NCBI RefSeq assembly: GCF_050920415.1
Contig: NZ_CP169309.1
Source of the DNA: Escherichia coli
Lineage (GTDB): Bacteria; Pseudomonadota; Gammaproteobacteria; Enterobacterales; Enterobacteriaceae
Direction: 5' to 3' (one strand)
Length of the DNA: 64,000 nucleotides
Below, piece by piece: positions 31,476-40,226 of this stretch (position 1 is its first letter; each line of letters opens with the position of its first letter). The translations under genes were made by a program, and so were the position numbers. A model generated the notes under the pieces. That model was not told the DNA's origin. It saw only the letters and a list, made by a program, of their open reading frames with translations, and searched no databases.

Positions 31476-33941
<2,466 letters not shown>

Positions 33942-33959
33942 GTTCACTAAAAAATAGAA

Positions 33960-33986
33960 CGGGGCCAAATCGGTCCCGTTTTTTTT
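33960..33986 (+). terminator. Rho-independent terminator after glgP
   Basis: Hairpin cggggccaaatcggtcccg (7-bp stem) followed by tttttttt. Confidence 0.7.
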
Positions 33987-34058
33987 CGCCTTTATTTCGG
34001 AGAAGTGTCCAGAGGGGCAAGGGGACTCGGGGGAGTATAATTTCGCCATTCAGAAAGA

Positions 34059-35576
34059 ATGGAAAGAATAATGCAAAACAAAAAATGGATTTTGACCTCG
34101 CTGGTAATGGCTTTTTTCGGCATCCCCATACTGGCGCAATTTTTGGCAGCGGTTATTGCCATGCTGGGGGCCGGGCTTGCCGCTATTCTTGAGGCTTGCA
34201 ATTTACTCTTTACGCCAACAATTTATCTTCTACTCAACGTCTTTATGCTGACGCTGGGGGCGATAATCCTATTTTTCTCTGGTCGCGTGTGGGCCGGTGA
34301 TAGCGCACCAGAAAACAGAGAAATAGCCGTCTGGCGGCAATGCTTTTTTCTTTTACCTGCACTGTTAACTCTGGTTGGCTGGATAATCACGCTACATCTG
34401 GCAGATTATCAATTTCGCCAAATGGGAGCAGGTTGGTTGGCAGAGCTTATGCTCCCCTGGCTGGGAGTTTTGTTAGTCTCATTAGTCGGAGGTGAGTTCT
34501 GGTGGATAGTCATTATACCCGTTGGTGCGCATATTAGTTTTTCACTGGGGTATGGCTGGCCGACCAGATATCCTTTAACCGGCACGTACGGGTTACGTTG
34601 CCGTAATTCCCTCCTGTTTATCCTTCTCATGCTTGGTTTTATCGCTGGTTATCAGGCTTATTTATATAAACAGATTAATCCCGGCGTCGGTGTGCGTGAA
34701 AATATTGATATCTGGGCCTGGCGACCCGATAAACTCAATAATCAACTGCCGCCACTGCGTGGTAAACCGCAAATTCAGTTTACACAAAACTGGCCGCGAC
34801 TCGATGGTGCTACAGCGGCGTACCCAATTTATGCTTCTGCCTTTTATGCGTTGAGCGTTATACCGGAAGATTTCCACACTTGGGAATATCTGGAGAACTC
34901 TCGTACCCCCGATGCATATAACAGGATTGTTAAAGGTGATGCCGATATTATTTTTGTGGCGCAACCTTCCGGTGGGCAGAAAAAACGCGCAGAGGAATCG
35001 GGCGTCACTTTGAACTACACTCCTTTCGCCCGTGAAGCATTCGTTTTCATCGTCAATGCGGATAACCCGGTTAATTCCCTGACTGACCAACAGGTGCGTG
35101 ACATCTTCAGTGGCGCAATTACCAACTGGCGCACGGTTGGCGGTAACGATCAGGAGATCCAGACCTGGCAACGCCCGGAAGACTCTGGCAGCCAGACAGT
35201 GATGCAATCGCAGGTCATGAAAAATGTCCGCATGATCTCGCCGCAGGAAACCGAAGTGGCAAGCATGATGGAGGGAATGATTAAAGTTGTTGCCGAATAC
35301 CGTAATACAAACAACTCAATAGGCTACACCTTCCGCTATTACGCAACACAAATGAACGCCGATAAAAATATAAAACTGCTAGCTATTAACGGTATTGCAC
35401 CGACTGCGGAAAATATTCGTAACGGCAAATATCCGTATATCGTCGATGCCTTTATGGTAACGCGGGAAAATACTACGTCAGAAACACAAAAACTGGTCGA
35501 ATGGTTTTTAACGCCGCAGGGGCAGAGTCTGGTGGAAGATGTGGGTTATGTACCGTTGCATACAACAATGAAATAA
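34059..35576 (+). CDS. Uncharacterized membrane protein: N-terminal polytopic membrane domain fused to a C-terminal PstS/PBP-like substrate-binding domain
   Basis: 505-aa ORF; residues ~1-200 are hydrophobic multi-TM; the C-terminal half (DGATAAYPIYASAFYAL...IIFVAQPSGGQKKRAEESG...WQRPEDSGSQTVM) looks like a phosphate-binding-protein (PstS-like) fold; no equivalent intact gene recalled at this position in K-12 (where the yzgL pseudogene sits); start may instead be the Met at 34071. Confidence 0.7.
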   Translation: MERIMQNKKWILTSLVMAFFGIPILAQFLAAVIAMLGAGLAAILEACNLLFTPTIYLLLNVFMLTLGAIILFFSGRVWAGDSAPENREIAVWRQCFFLLPALLTLVGWIITLHLADYQFRQMGAGWLAELMLPWLGVLLVSLVGGEFWWIVIIPVGAHISFSLGYGWPTRYPLTGTYGLRCRNSLLFILLMLGFIAGYQAYLYKQINPGVGVRENIDIWAWRPDKLNNQLPPLRGKPQIQFTQNWPRLDGATAAYPIYASAFYALSVIPEDFHTWEYLENSRTPDAYNRIVKGDADIIFVAQPSGGQKKRAEESGVTLNYTPFAREAFVFIVNADNPVNSLTDQQVRDIFSGAITNWRTVGGNDQEIQTWQRPEDSGSQTVMQSQVMKNVRMISPQETEVASMMEGMIKVVAEYRNTNNSIGYTFRYYATQMNADKNIKLLAINGIAPTAENIRNGKYPYIVDAFMVTRENTTSETQKLVEWFLTPQGQSLVEDVGYVPLHTTMK

Positions 35577-35601
35577 CTTTTGAGAGAACGGAATCAGCGC
35601 G

Positions 35602-36594
35602 ATGAATAAATTCATAGGCGTTTTACTGCTAGGTGCGGTTTTACTGGCGGGATGTGTCGACCGGGAAGGGTACTATAACAGCGTCAGGGAAGAAGAAAGC
35701 CATGGACTGACGTCTCTGCGGGGGCAACCAGAATTACGTTACAGCGATGATTGGTCAAGATGGCCGAGAGTGTACGGCGCTACAGCCTTATACCCGCTGT
35801 ATGCTTCCGCGTATTATGAATTAGTACCCGAGCCAAAAGATAAGGATCGAACCTCGCTGGCCTGGCAGGCGTATGGTTTGCAACAAACCCGAACAGCTGA
35901 AGCCTACGATAGTCTGATCAAGGTTACCGCGACGGTTATTTTTGTTGCACAACCGTCGGAAGGACAGAAAAAACGTGCAGAAGAAGCAGGCGTTAAACTG
36001 AAATATACCGCTTTCGCCCGCGAAGCCTTTGTCTTTATCGTTGATATCAAAAACCCGGTTAATTCACTTAGCGAACAGCAGGTCAAAGACATTTTTAGCG
36101 GTAAAGTGAGTCGCTGGAATAAAGTGGGCGGCGGTGACGAAAGTATAAAAGTCTGGCAGCGGCCAGAAGATTCTGGAAGCCAAACGGTTATGAAGGGACT
36201 GGTTATGCAAGATACTCCAATGCTGCCAGCCAAAAAATCCACTGTTATCGATCTTATGGGCAGTTTAATTACCGAAGTCGCCGACTACCAAAACACAACA
36301 TCTTCCATTGGATACACCTTCCACTATTACGTCACGCGTATGAATGACAATATGCTCAAAATGCGCAAACAGATCAAACTGCTGGCTATAAATGGCGTTG
36401 CACCTACAGAGGAAAATATCCGTAACGGCACTTATCCGTACATAATTGATGCTTATATGGTGACGCACGAAAACCCTACGCTGGAAACGCAGAAATTCGT
36501 CGACTGGTTTTTAAGCCCGCAGGGACAGCAATTGGTAGAGGATGTGGGCTATGTGCCGATTCATGACGCATCATACGAATCATCAGTGCAATAA
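35602..36594 (+). CDS. Uncharacterized lipoprotein with PstS/PBP-like substrate-binding domain (paralog of the C-terminal domain of the upstream gene)
   Basis: 330-aa ORF; lipoprotein signal MNKFIGVLLLGAVLLAGC (lipobox LAGC); long near-identical stretches with the previous gene (VIFVAQPSEGQKKRAEEAGV...FAREAFVFIV...WQRPEDSGSQTVM). Confidence 0.75.
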   Translation: MNKFIGVLLLGAVLLAGCVDREGYYNSVREEESHGLTSLRGQPELRYSDDWSRWPRVYGATALYPLYASAYYELVPEPKDKDRTSLAWQAYGLQQTRTAEAYDSLIKVTATVIFVAQPSEGQKKRAEEAGVKLKYTAFAREAFVFIVDIKNPVNSLSEQQVKDIFSGKVSRWNKVGGGDESIKVWQRPEDSGSQTVMKGLVMQDTPMLPAKKSTVIDLMGSLITEVADYQNTTSSIGYTFHYYVTRMNDNMLKMRKQIKLLAINGVAPTEENIRNGTYPYIIDAYMVTHENPTLETQKFVDWFLSPQGQQLVEDVGYVPIHDASYESSVQ

Positions 36595-37196
36595 TGATGA
36601 ATAAAATCAGACTTTATATTCCTCCGTTAATTCTTGGTTTTTTTATTGTGCCGTTGTTGGTGTGGCCGACGGTGGTTGCGCTGGCTGCTTCTGTTATCAC
36701 GCTGAGTTTTCTGGGAGAGATACTGTTCTCTATCCCGCTCATGATCAGGCATATTTCGCTTCTGCAATTACAACTATGGTTATCGGCTGAATATGCGCTT
36801 TTCTGCTGTGCAATGGTGGGCGTTGGTTGGCAATTTGCGCGCAGAACGCCACCTGAATCGAAAAGCAGACTGCATTGTTGGCTGGTATTTGCACCGGTTT
36901 ATTTCTGGTTGCTCCTGTGGAATATCATTTTCTATGTCGCGCCAGCGAATATTGCGTTGCTGGAGAATATGCGCAGTTTCTTTCTGACAGTTGTCTGGCT
37001 CCCACTAAATTTTTCACCATTTTGGTCCCAACCGTGGATTGACTTTGTCGGTCCAATAAGCGCACAGCTTGGTTTTGCGTTGGGATATTATTGCCAGTGG
37101 CGTAGCAAAAATAGAAGCCAGATACGGAAGTGGAGTGAGTGGGGAACGTGCCTGAGTTTTGTTACGTTGGGTATGATGGCGTGGGCTTTGCGGTAA
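36594..37196 (+). CDS. Uncharacterized polytopic inner membrane protein (resembles the N-terminal membrane domain of the 505-aa protein)
   Basis: 200-aa hydrophobic ORF whose start overlaps the upstream stop; segment VGPISAQLGFALGYYCQWR resembles VGAHISFSLGYGWPTRY in the first island protein. Confidence 0.6.
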   Translation: MMNKIRLYIPPLILGFFIVPLLVWPTVVALAASVITLSFLGEILFSIPLMIRHISLLQLQLWLSAEYALFCCAMVGVGWQFARRTPPESKSRLHCWLVFAPVYFWLLLWNIIFYVAPANIALLENMRSFFLTVVWLPLNFSPFWSQPWIDFVGPISAQLGFALGYYCQWRSKNRSQIRKWSEWGTCLSFVTLGMMAWALR

Positions 37197-37247
37197 TTCC
37201 CTGACTCAAAAAGTAGGTCAGATTGTTGACAAAGTGCGCTTTGTTCA

Positions 37248-38626
<1,379 letters not shown>

Positions 38627-38687
38627 TTTTTTGTTTATCATCAGTCTCAGGTCAGATTGAAATCTGACCTGGCCACATTACGTTAAT

Positions 38688-40193
38688 TTACGACGCCAGC
38701 GACAACCTCTGCTGCGTATACTCCCCTAGCCACTGACTCACACGGGATTGTTGCTGCGCATTCAGCCACATGCCTTGTTTTGTGCGACGCCACAGGGCAT
38801 CGTCGGCGCGGCGGACCCATTCGTGATCCACAAGGTATTTCAGCTCCGCTTCGTAGAACTCATGACCGAAATCCTCCCCAAGATCGCTTACCGCCCCCGC
38901 ATTGCCGAGCAGCAGCTCGCTGTTGCTGCCGTAAGTGCGCGCGTAGTGACGTGCCAGCGATTCAGTCAGGAACGGGTAACGGCGGCGCAGGCGGGCGGCA
39001 TAATCGTCGCGATCGCCTTCAATGGCACCACCCGGCAGCACGCTCTCTTTCGTCCACGCCGGGCCAATGCCCTGATAATACGGCGTCAGTTTTTCCAGCG
39101 CGTGCTCCGCCAGTTTGCGGTAGGTGGTCAGCTTACCGCCGAATACCGATAACAGCGGAGCTTTGCCGTTTTCATCATGGATATCAAGGGTGTAATCACG
39201 GGTAATGGCCTGCGGCGAATCAGATTCATCATCACACAGCGGACGCACACCGGAGTAGGTCCAGACGATATCGTCCCGGCTTAACTGCTTTTTAAAGTGC
39301 GTGTTATACACTTTCAGCAGGTAATTGATTTCACTCTCTTCAATCTTCACTGCTTTTGGATCACCTTTGTATTCCACATCGGTGGTGCCGATGATGGAAA
39401 ACTCGTCCATCCACGGGATCACGAAGACAATACGTTTATCTTCGTTTTGCAGAATGTAGGCTTGCTTCTGGGTATGCACACGCGGCACGACAATATGGCT
39501 GCCTTTGATCAGGCGAATGCCATAAGGTGAGGGTAGATGCATCCCGTCGTCGAAGAACTGCTTCACCCACGGGCCGGTGGCGTTCACGAGGCCGCGCGCT
39601 TGCCAGCTATATTTTTTGCCGGTATCGATATCTTCCGCTTCCACAATCCACAGGCCGTTTTCGCGGCGAGCAGAAGTGGCACGAGTACGGGTAAGCACTT
39701 CACCGCCTTTACGCACCACCATCTGGGCGTTGGCGAGTACCAGACGGGCGTCGTCTACCCAACAGTCGGAATATTCGAATCCGCGCTTAATTTCCGGTTT
39801 TAACACTGAATTTGCGCCAAAACGCAAACCGGTTGATCCCGGCAGGCTGGTGCGTTTACCCAGATGATCGTACATAAACAGACCAATACGGATCATCCAC
39901 GCCGGACGCAGATGCGGGCGATGCGGCAGGCGAAAACGCATCGGGAAAGCGATATGGGGAGCCATTTTCAGCAACACTTCACGTTCAGCCAGCGCCTCGC
40001 TGACCAGGCGGAATTCATAGTGCTCAAGGTAGCGCAGGCCACCATGAATGAGTTTTGAACTGGCGGAAGAGGTCGCACAAGCGAGATCCTGCGCCTCCAG
40101 CATCAGCACGGATAAACCGCGTCCAGCGGCGTCTGCCGCGATACCAGCACCATTGATGCCGCCACCTATCACAATCAGATCTTTGGTTTCCAT
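38688..40193 (-). CDS. glpD: Aerobic sn-glycerol-3-phosphate dehydrogenase
   Basis: Internal start METKDLIVIGGGINGAGIAADAAGRG (FAD-binding motif) within ORF 38688..40208; 501 aa. Confidence 0.96.
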   Translation of the reverse strand: METKDLIVIGGGINGAGIAADAAGRGLSVLMLEAQDLACATSSASSKLIHGGLRYLEHYEFRLVSEALAEREVLLKMAPHIAFPMRFRLPHRPHLRPAWMIRIGLFMYDHLGKRTSLPGSTGLRFGANSVLKPEIKRGFEYSDCWVDDARLVLANAQMVVRKGGEVLTRTRATSARRENGLWIVEAEDIDTGKKYSWQARGLVNATGPWVKQFFDDGMHLPSPYGIRLIKGSHIVVPRVHTQKQAYILQNEDKRIVFVIPWMDEFSIIGTTDVEYKGDPKAVKIEESEINYLLKVYNTHFKKQLSRDDIVWTYSGVRPLCDDESDSPQAITRDYTLDIHDENGKAPLLSVFGGKLTTYRKLAEHALEKLTPYYQGIGPAWTKESVLPGGAIEGDRDDYAARLRRRYPFLTESLARHYARTYGSNSELLLGNAGAVSDLGEDFGHEFYEAELKYLVDHEWVRRADDALWRRTKQGMWLNAQQQSRVSQWLGEYTQQRLSLAS

Positions 40194-40226
40194 GCTGCCC
40201 TCATTCACTTTCGTTAAAGCTCATAA

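Follow-up and report, generated by a model that had tools for sequence, protein, structure and literature searches.

A fused membrane and PstS-like protein and its separately encoded modules at the Escherichia coli glgP-glpD site: probable juxtaposition of the two single-module genes by cassette replacement

On the Escherichia coli chromosome, the 4.7 kb between glgP (31494-33941, + strand) and glpD (38688-40208, - strand) is occupied by three open reading frames (ORFs) on the same strand, here called genes 1, 2 and 3. Coordinates are those of the window, that is, the whole 64,000-nt stretch of contig NZ_CP169309.1 that was analysed. Gene 1 encodes a six-helix membrane module (M) and a PstS-like PBP_like_2 domain (B) in a single polypeptide, gene 2 encodes a B module as a lipoprotein, and gene 3 encodes a stand-alone M module, including the last helix, which in gene 1 leads into the binding domain. 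RefSeq names the products of genes 1 and 2 ‘PstS family phosphate ABC transporter substrate-binding protein’ and that of gene 3 ‘hypothetical protein’. Sequence comparisons establish that the B and M modules of gene 1 are homologous to genes 2 and 3, respectively. We consider it likely that the three genes belong to one two-module family, that the glgP-glpD region is a birth-and-death locus, and that the split genes were juxtaposed by a later swap. The adjacency of genes 2 and 3 would then be secondary, a product of cassette replacement and not of the splitting of gene 1. The features on which this account draws are the following.

34059-35576, + strand: gene 1, ORF of 505 aa; an alternative start at 34071 gives ‘MQNKK’
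34059..34676, + strand: membrane module of gene 1 (aa 1-206), from the secondary structure of the AlphaFold2 (AF2) model
34752..35576, + strand: PBP_like_2 (PstS-like) periplasmic binding module of gene 1 (aa 232-505), Pfam PF12849, E 1.4e-29
35602-36594, + strand: gene 2, ORF of 330 aa
35602..35655, + strand: type II (lipoprotein) signal peptide of gene 2, MNKFIGVLLLGAVLLAG, cleaved before Cys; +2 residue Val
36557..36594, + strand: putative recombination scar covering the stop codon of gene 2 and the ~12 codons before it; a DNA alignment shows homology to the 3' end of an unrelated 255-aa gene
36594-37196, + strand: gene 3, ORF of 200 aa

Homology of the membrane modules

In the AF2 model of the gene 1 product (predicted local distance difference test score, pLDDT, 90.5; predicted template-modelling score, pTM, 0.81), helices span residues 2-46, 53-81, 87-114, 119-144 (broken), 149-169 and 177-206. 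The binding module consists of alternating beta/alpha domains, modelled with pLDDT above 90, and has the type II periplasmic binding fold. The pTM value suggests a defined arrangement of the domains. An initial annotation, made from the sequence alone, had described gene 1 as a membrane domain followed by a PstS-like domain, and the six modelled helices together with the PF12849 match bear this out.

The same annotation held that gene 3 resembles the N-terminal domain of gene 1, a relationship that pairwise comparison hardly reveals. BLASTP of the gene 1 N-terminus against gene 3 was not significant (best E 0.59), a collinear Smith-Waterman alignment reached only z = 4.2 against shuffles, and phmmer of gene 3 against 1.84 billion representative proteins returned no fused protein, the matches being close relatives, fragments and one 36%-identical protein (P0147). 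A word-indexed search with the gene 1 N-domain alone found Escherichia fragments only. These values would be compatible with a resemblance through shared hydrophobic composition only, which the initial annotation had named as the outcome that would overturn its claim. However, when the gene 3 family was aligned by hhalign with the N-terminal 215 residues of 79 fused homologues, the two matched with a probability of 98.9% and E 1.3e-17 over 169 collinear columns, gene 3 residues 1-176 corresponding to gene 1 residues 4-176. Leaving out every Escherichia gene 1 sequence gave 99.0% and E 6.7e-18, whereas the control comparisons gave E 0.015 for a reversed template and E 0.03-0.89 for eight column shuffles. 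Moreover, a hidden Markov model (HMM) built from the fused N-domains alone matched only gene-1-type and gene-3-type ORFs among the 2199 ORFs of the window and the fetched loci, and ignored the other membrane proteins of the window. With closer fused homologues, even BLASTP is significant: gene 3 and the Salmonella fused protein P0213 share 29% identity over 200 aa (E 8e-9), and P0147, the distant relative of gene 3, is 32% identical to the Salmonella fused protein P0216 (E 3e-15). The profile comparison with its controls and the Salmonella BLASTP matches thus refute the hydrophobicity-only reading. Of the two pairwise checks that had been suggested, the one between the gene 1 C-terminus and gene 2 succeeded (E 1e-118) and the one between the gene 1 N-terminus and gene 3 failed; a simple pairwise alignment of genes 1 and 3, taken alone, would have led to the homology being wrongly rejected.

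In a joint alignment of the two groups, the same motifs follow each other in the same order and at equal positions, and P20, G78, P101, W109, W148, P154, F161 and G164 (gene 3 numbering) are nearly invariant in both. The motifs are F-x-G-(V/I)-P in helix 1, G-(R/W)-x-W-A at the end of helix 2, L-L-L-P-A-L...W in helix 3, P-W in helix 4 and W...P-x-G-x-Q-x-x-F-x-L-G-Y in helix 5 of the six-helix module; in the membrane module of gene 1, the conserved residues include P23, G75, R93, W108 and Q199. The AF2 model of gene 3 (pLDDT 78), which is not independent of the homology claim because its input alignment included fused N-domains, has helices at residues 5-45, 56-84, 92-115, 120-139, 152-172 and 174-199, the same six-helix plan as gene 1. 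When AFDB50 was searched with this model in Foldseek, its own orthologue came first, and all further hits were to the N-terminal portions of fused PstS-like proteins.

Gene 3 stops precisely where the last helix does, and Q199 and E214, which are invariant in the fused proteins at the passage into the binding domain, are missing from it. In phmmer and BLASTP comparisons, its best score was not with gene 1 but with a clade of 507-aa fused proteins of Salmonella. Two fused genes lie in tandem at the same glgP-glpD site in Salmonella, and the second of them encodes the proteins of this clade. The gene 3 family is essentially confined to Escherichia, with an intact frame of 196-201 aa in E. coli, E. 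albertii, E. marmotae and E. whittamii, plus one metagenome contig; an alignment-based contig scan found three Escherichia loci only. The M module belongs to no Pfam or NCBIfam family (0 of 38 members matched Pfam), found nothing in PHROGs or PADLOC, and has no solved structural relative. It has no recognisable permease domain (e.g., BPD_transp_1) and no ATPase gene nearby, and in these respects does not resemble the membrane domain of an ATP-binding cassette (ABC) importer. Judging from these comparisons, M is an undescribed membrane module on a tethered binding protein.

Homology of the binding modules

Gene 1 residues 230-501 and gene 2 residues 36-321 aligned with 58% identity and 75% positives (E 1e-118), and gene 2 retains 79 of the 83 positions of the periplasmic binding protein (PBP) domain that are at least 90% conserved in the fused family. 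At residues 15-18, gene 2 carries the lipobox LLAG followed by Cys, which conforms to the pattern [LVI][ASTVI][GAS]C, and a lipobox is present in 14 of the 16 members of the gene 2 lipoprotein clade. Gene 2 was thus rightly recognised at the outset as a PstS-like lipoprotein that shares stretches with gene 1, and all of the peptides quoted in support are present. In E. coli, Asp at position +2 retains a lipoprotein at the inner membrane. The residue following the lipidated Cys is Val in gene 2 and is Asp in no member of the clade. By the sorting rule, the gene 2 product is therefore predicted to be an outer-membrane lipoprotein, not one held beside an inner-membrane partner.

In a neighbour-joining (NJ) tree of the binding domain, gene 2 falls within a clade of lipoproteins of 314-337 aa, separate from gene 1. 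The lipoproteins and gene 1 together excluded the distant fused lineages in 100/100 bootstraps, which implies an origin of the lipoproteins within the enterobacterial fused radiation; that this origin was a single one was recovered in 47/100.

Solved PstS chains in the PDB match the binding module with E down to 8e-26. In its binding site, GATA, T283, AQPS and QRPEDSGSQ are strictly conserved and align with the phosphate-binding loops GSTS, GSS, ASR and REDGSGT of a solved PstS. Conservation extends to the Thr of G-x-T, the Arg and the S-G-S/T loop; elsewhere in the loops, the family has A, Q, P and Q as invariant substitutions. A phosphate-like oxyanion is a reasonable inference for the ligand from this alignment.

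Origin of the gene 2-gene 3 junction

From the overlap of genes 2 and 3, the initial annotation had suggested a stoichiometric pair of binding protein and membrane partner that duplicates gene 1. The overlap is real and its coordinates were correct: at the junction gtgcaaTAATGAtg, the stop codon TAA of gene 2 and the ATG of gene 3 share one base (TAATGA). A second ATG, the start used by most homologues, lies 3 nt further in gene 3. The gene order, B then M, is the reverse of the M-B domain order in gene 1.

Comparison with other variants of the locus suggests that the junction is older than the pairing. The end of gene 2, HDASYESSVQ-stop, corresponds to the end of the 255-aa protein, YDASSESPGK-stop, and a tail of the form ...CAM(Y/H)D(A/V)S is native to the 255/278-aa family. 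On the metagenome contig L003, a 278-aa homologue that is 50% identical to the 255-aa protein and ends ...CAMHDVS... is coupled to a 36%-identical homologue of gene 3, and in E. whittamii the 255-aa gene is found with a gene 3 that is 85% identical to that of the window. A gene-2-like lipoprotein of Pseudocitrobacter is without the HDASYESSVQ-type tail. The cassette boundaries can be placed from the same comparisons: at the left boundary, similarity between variants is lost with the stop codon of gene 1, and at the right boundary it returns ~36 nt short of the stop codon of the gene, whichever it is, that lies ahead of gene 3. Since the shared tail is native to the 255-aa family, gene 2 appears to have replaced the body of a 255-aa gene and to have inherited its coupling junction with gene 3.

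Genes 2 and 3 also differ from the halves of a split gene. The domain order is not kept, the halves are not closest to their fused neighbour, and they do not always co-occur, each being found without the other. The proposal of a split pair that duplicates gene 1 therefore survives in part: the same two homologous modules do occur both fused and separate, but neither gene is a copy of gene 1, the order is reversed, and the junction appears to be inherited.

Two families occupy the variable slot in other loci. One is a 236-aa protein, 55% identical to a Klebsiella protein with a faint DUF4279 match, and the other is the 255/278-aa protein, which looks cytoplasmic (L006, 4647-5357 and 5360-6127; L003, 121-957; L009, 7838-8542). 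Neither family had a match in Pfam, NCBIfam, PHROGs or PADLOC.

Variation of the site and selection

The order gene 1-gene 2-gene 3 is shared by the window, O157:H7 and Escherichia sp. E1V33, and ETEC4091 carries gene 1, the 236-aa gene, the 255-aa gene and a gene 3-like ORF. Genes 2 and 3 are present in 876/5426 complete E. coli genomes. Roughly 1100 complete E. coli genomes match the gene 3 part only, at ~79% identity and annotated as ‘hypothetical protein (x2)’; there, the 255-aa gene precedes gene 3. In terms of modules, the site holds M-B, B, M in the window, M-B ... M in other E. coli variants, M-B, B, B in E. coli TA054, M-B, M-B in Salmonella and a single M-B gene in K. oxytoca. Gene-2-type lipoproteins without any M gene occur in Salmonella, E. 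albertii and E. coli TA054. In Pseudocitrobacter, the gene for the gene-2-like lipoprotein (73% identical) overlaps, through ATGA, a 351-aa gene composed of M (70 bits with the N-domain HMM) and an internally deleted binding domain. Judged from these arrangements, a free B gene beside an M-bearing gene has arisen at least twice at the site.

In K-12, the locus is deleted down to the yzgL remnant, and only short matches are left, including one to the last 60 nt of gene 3. A 208-aa ORF (P0083) is a deletion derivative in which ~34 codons from the start of gene 1 continue in one frame into a piece of the binding domain and then into the 3' half of gene 3; such derivatives were seen with the K-12 loci H15-H18 and H29-H31. 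The pattern indicates that the locus decays by internal deletions between paralogous modules. In several variants, although not in the window, the module genes are flanked by a gene for a 142-aa secreted repeat protein (..YRD.NGN..G..), found at L015 8231-8659 and L003 1686-2114 (55% identity between the two) and duplicated in E. coli TA054 (L021, 2987-3412 and 8636-9064).

In the window, genes 1-3 are intact and under purifying selection. Compared with O157, genes 1, 2 and 3 have ratios of nonsynonymous to synonymous divergence (dN/dS) of 0.14, 0.11 and 0.18, respectively, versus 0.01 for glgP and 0.03 for glpD, and across the deep allelic split of gene 3 (dS 0.95) the ratio is 0.20. The possibility that the whole locus is hypervariable was rejected, the synonymous divergence of genes 1-3 (0.17-0.38) being similar to that of glgP and glpD (0.24-0.26) in the same pair of strains.

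The fused family and a proposed history

Homologues of ~500 aa with the architecture of gene 1 are found in Klebsiella, Salmonella, Intestinirhabdus, Phytobacter, Budviciaceae, Leminorella, Leclercia and Brachymonas, and a structure search recovered more distant fused homologues in Firmicutes and Actinobacteria. The fused homologues are lone genes in unrelated housekeeping contexts, and in the loci examined no ABC, kinase or other partner genes are conserved beside them. Because gene 2 is exported, we infer that the binding domain of the fused proteins must be periplasmic. The strongly positive loops of gene 1, residues 76-93 and 166-183, fit a cytoplasmic placement. Together, the two placements call for an odd number of full membrane crossings, so that the broken helix 119-144 probably re-enters the membrane or lies along its surface.

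These observations can be assembled into the following scenario. M would be a ~200-residue six-helix module without a described family, B a PstS-like PBP_like_2 domain, and gene 1 the standard M-B form, which many Enterobacterales have as a single gene. The gene 2 clade would have arisen within the enterobacterial fused radiation, helices 1-5 having likely been lost. In the fused proteins, the last helix is a hydrophobic segment with Arg/Lys at its start and, at its end, A-(G/A)-(W/Y) and then an invariant Gln; in gene 1, it ends ...LMLGFIAGYQ at the place that aligns with the gene 2 lipobox. This helix would run from inside to outside and, once helices 1-5 were lost, could serve as a type II signal peptide. 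In three fused homologues from Budviciaceae and Leminorella (P0246, P0248 and P0249), the aromatic residue at the column of gene 1 residue 198 is Cys, within the lipoboxes LVAGC, LTAC and VVGC. These fused proteins could possibly be cleaved internally and lipidated, releasing the binding domain. Gene 3 would be an M cut right after the last helix, with the M of the second Salmonella tandem fused gene as its nearest relative. Finally, a cassette carrying gene 2 would have replaced the genes from the gene 1 stop codon to the last ~36 nt of the 255-aa gene. As a working model suggested by the fused architecture, B would bind a small phosphate-like oxyanion in the periplasm, dock on M and act on or with it, in cis in gene 1. 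The lipoprotein B of gene 2 might also work in trans with the M of gene 3.

Several points weigh against this account. The direction from fused to split rests on NJ trees of one domain, in which support for a single lipoprotein origin is modest, and the NJ tree of the N-domain was uninformative, its distances being saturated, so that pairwise scores were used instead. M has few conserved polar residues, and a role in transport or signalling is conjecture. The second, independent lipoprotein and M pair in Pseudocitrobacter fits a selected functional pairing better than pure accident. In addition, many database copies of gene 3 are frameshifted or truncated; together with the deletion in K-12, these broken copies indicate that the system is dispensable.

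Alternative explanations

The most serious alternative, which we nevertheless judge unlikely, is that genes 2 and 3 truly encode a two-chain counterpart of gene 1, in which translational coupling fixes the ratio of a binding lipoprotein to its membrane partner and the cell gains a second, split copy of one machine. Each module is homologous to its counterpart in gene 1, which agrees with this, as do the 1-nt stop/start overlap, the retention of the whole conserved binding site in gene 2, the maintenance of the pair in 876 of the 5426 complete genomes, with dN/dS of 0.11 (gene 2) and 0.18 (gene 3), and the Pseudocitrobacter lipoprotein gene that overlaps an M gene. However, the junction seems to be inherited from an arrangement of the 255-aa gene and gene 3, and that gene still stands in place of gene 2 beside gene 3 in ~1100 E. 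coli genomes and in E. whittamii. Furthermore, gene-2-type lipoproteins exist without any M gene, the order is reversed relative to gene 1, Val at +2 predicts sorting to the outer membrane, and gene 3 lacks the Q199 and E214 that are invariant at the exit of the last helix.

A bolder reading, to which we attach only a small probability, is that M and the PstS-like module make up an unrecognised binding-protein-dependent device, a small transporter or a sensor for a phosphate-like ligand, that works without an ABC ATPase, either in cis (gene 1) or in trans, with the gene 2 lipoprotein docking on the gene 3 protein, and that the lipoprotein form was also recruited beside PAAR-Rhs toxin genes.

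A further possibility, improbable in our view, is that the modules are accessory or immunity components of interbacterial competition by type VI secretion system (T6SS)/Rhs effectors, the glgP-glpD site collecting such orphan genes. Genes of the gene 2 type lie 50-130 nt 5' of PAAR-Rhs genes or their remnants in Salmonella (L007 and L018), E. albertii (L017) and E. coli EC42405 (L022); in three of these loci, the gene-2-type gene is directly 3' of one type of Rhs C-terminal toxin domain, and the variable genes at the site are without known family. Against this, T6SS, Rhs and PAAR genes are all lacking at the window locus, and the window does not contain the toxin domain. The fused homologues are lone genes in housekeeping contexts, and there was no PADLOC match. 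In EC42405, a 148-aa gene overlaps the upstream Rhs gene and occupies the place where its immunity gene would usually be found, which weakens the idea that the lipoprotein is the immunity protein of the preceding Rhs toxin. The Rhs-associated lipoprotein regions are L007 3234-4522 and 5986-7981, L018 5290-7280, L017 4640-7521 and L022 1976-12367; the Rhs C-terminal domain 5' of the lipoprotein genes, with the signature DPLGLDS-YLV-RDLS...THTFL...YSWGN...KKENEH, has no Pfam match.

Slightly less probable still is that gene 3 is a decaying, functionless remnant of a second fused gene, which came to lie next to gene 2 by accident, through deletions and replacements at a recombination hot spot. 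The restriction of the family to Escherichia and one metagenome contig, the many frameshifted or truncated alleles, the yzgL remnant that is all K-12 keeps, and the Pseudocitrobacter intermediate with its internally deleted binding domain could all be read in this way. Yet the dN/dS of gene 3 is 0.18 versus O157 and 0.20 across the deep allelic split, the 196-201-aa frame is intact in four Escherichia species, and the gene retains the family-conserved P23, G75, P100, W108, W148, P154, F161 and G164. The last alternative, a gene 3-gene 1 resemblance through hydrophobic composition only, has next to no credibility left after the comparisons described above.

Neighbouring features and transcription signals

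Two candidate signals were read from the DNA upstream of gene 1.

33957..33986, + strand: hairpin followed by a T-run, 3' of glgP, gaacggggccaaatcggtcccgtttttttt; unlisted in the consensus scan
34036..34041, + strand: candidate -10 box, a perfect TATAAT hexamer 18-30 nt 5' of the gene 1 start codons

The hairpin may mark the upstream limit of the three-gene unit, and genes 1-3 are probably on one transcript. The consensus promoter scan proposed a different, weak site at 34043-34072 and not the TATAAT hexamer. The start region of gene 1 (34059-34073) reads ATG GAA AGA ATA ATG. The RefSeq product for the identical strain has 502 aa, which implies a start at the ATA codon at 34068, where other strains have ATG ATG; a true start at 34071 or 34059 is more likely in the source strain.

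Between gene 3 and glpD, the window contains a copy of IS621 (IS110 family, ~1277 bp; 37321-38597), adjoining REP-like sequence and absent from O157. Its transposase frame (ORFs 37426-37656 and 37653-38405, minus strand) is disrupted by the loss of 1 nt from a C-run near 37664, by comparison with strain MFDS1022581, which is nearly identical in other respects; the frameshift may be genuine, or the homopolymer may have been misread in sequencing. An Rfam scan of 33900-38700 gave zero matches. No ABC genes were found at the window locus, where the neighbours are glgP and glpD, or in the eight related loci examined. A literature search on genes 1-3, yzgL or the glgP-glpD region found nothing on these genes.

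Implications and comparison with known systems

Through its homology to the gene 1 N-terminus, gene 3, a ‘hypothetical protein’, gains a family, namely the membrane module of widespread, unstudied membrane-tethered PstS-like proteins. O157:H7 and hundreds of other E. coli carry the locus, but K-12 has lost it by deletion, which may be the reason why it has never been studied. If the proposed history is correct, it provides a natural example of a fused membrane protein giving rise to a lipoprotein, the last helix being already signal-peptide-like. It would also show that an unrelated gene, on arriving upstream, can take over a translational-coupling junction, a caution against inferring functional pairing from start/stop overlap alone.

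The annotated counterpart of the locus in K-12 is yzgL, a small ORF between glgP and glpD. The site is the same, yzgL being a deletion leftover, whereas the window has three intact genes.

PstS of the PstSCAB importer (PF12849, TIGR02136; solved structures 4q8r, 4gd5 and 4exl) resembles genes 1 and 2 in its fold and in the aligned anion-binding loops. In contrast to PstS, genes 1 and 2 have GATA in place of GSTS, AQP in place of ASR and SGSQ in place of SGTR, all invariant within their family, and gene 1 has a 200-residue membrane module, of which PstS has none. No pstCAB genes adjoin the module genes in any locus examined. In NCBIfam, TIGR02136 scored 118.8 bits for gene 1 and 117.8 bits for gene 2, far below the cut-off of 206.6. 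Because of the scores below the curated cut-off, the altered binding loops and the lack of transporter genes nearby, the label ‘PstS’ is doubtful, and ‘PstS-like’ is as far as the naming should go.

Substrate-binding domains fused to the membrane domain of a transporter are known from ABC importers of the OpuABC and GlnPQ type, and lipoprotein or membrane-tethered binding proteins are known in Gram-positive bacteria. Genes 1 and 2 are similar to these in that a binding domain is tied to a multi-helix domain (gene 1) or to a lipid anchor (gene 2), with fused and separate forms in one family. Finally, the locus resembles the Rosetta stone (fission/fusion) pairs, in that the same two domains are encoded both by one fused gene and by two single-module genes; this suggests that they cooperate. 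Unlike such pairs, however, genes 2 and 3 do not appear to be the halves of one broken gene: their order is reversed, their closest fused relatives are different, and their junction seems to derive from an unrelated gene.

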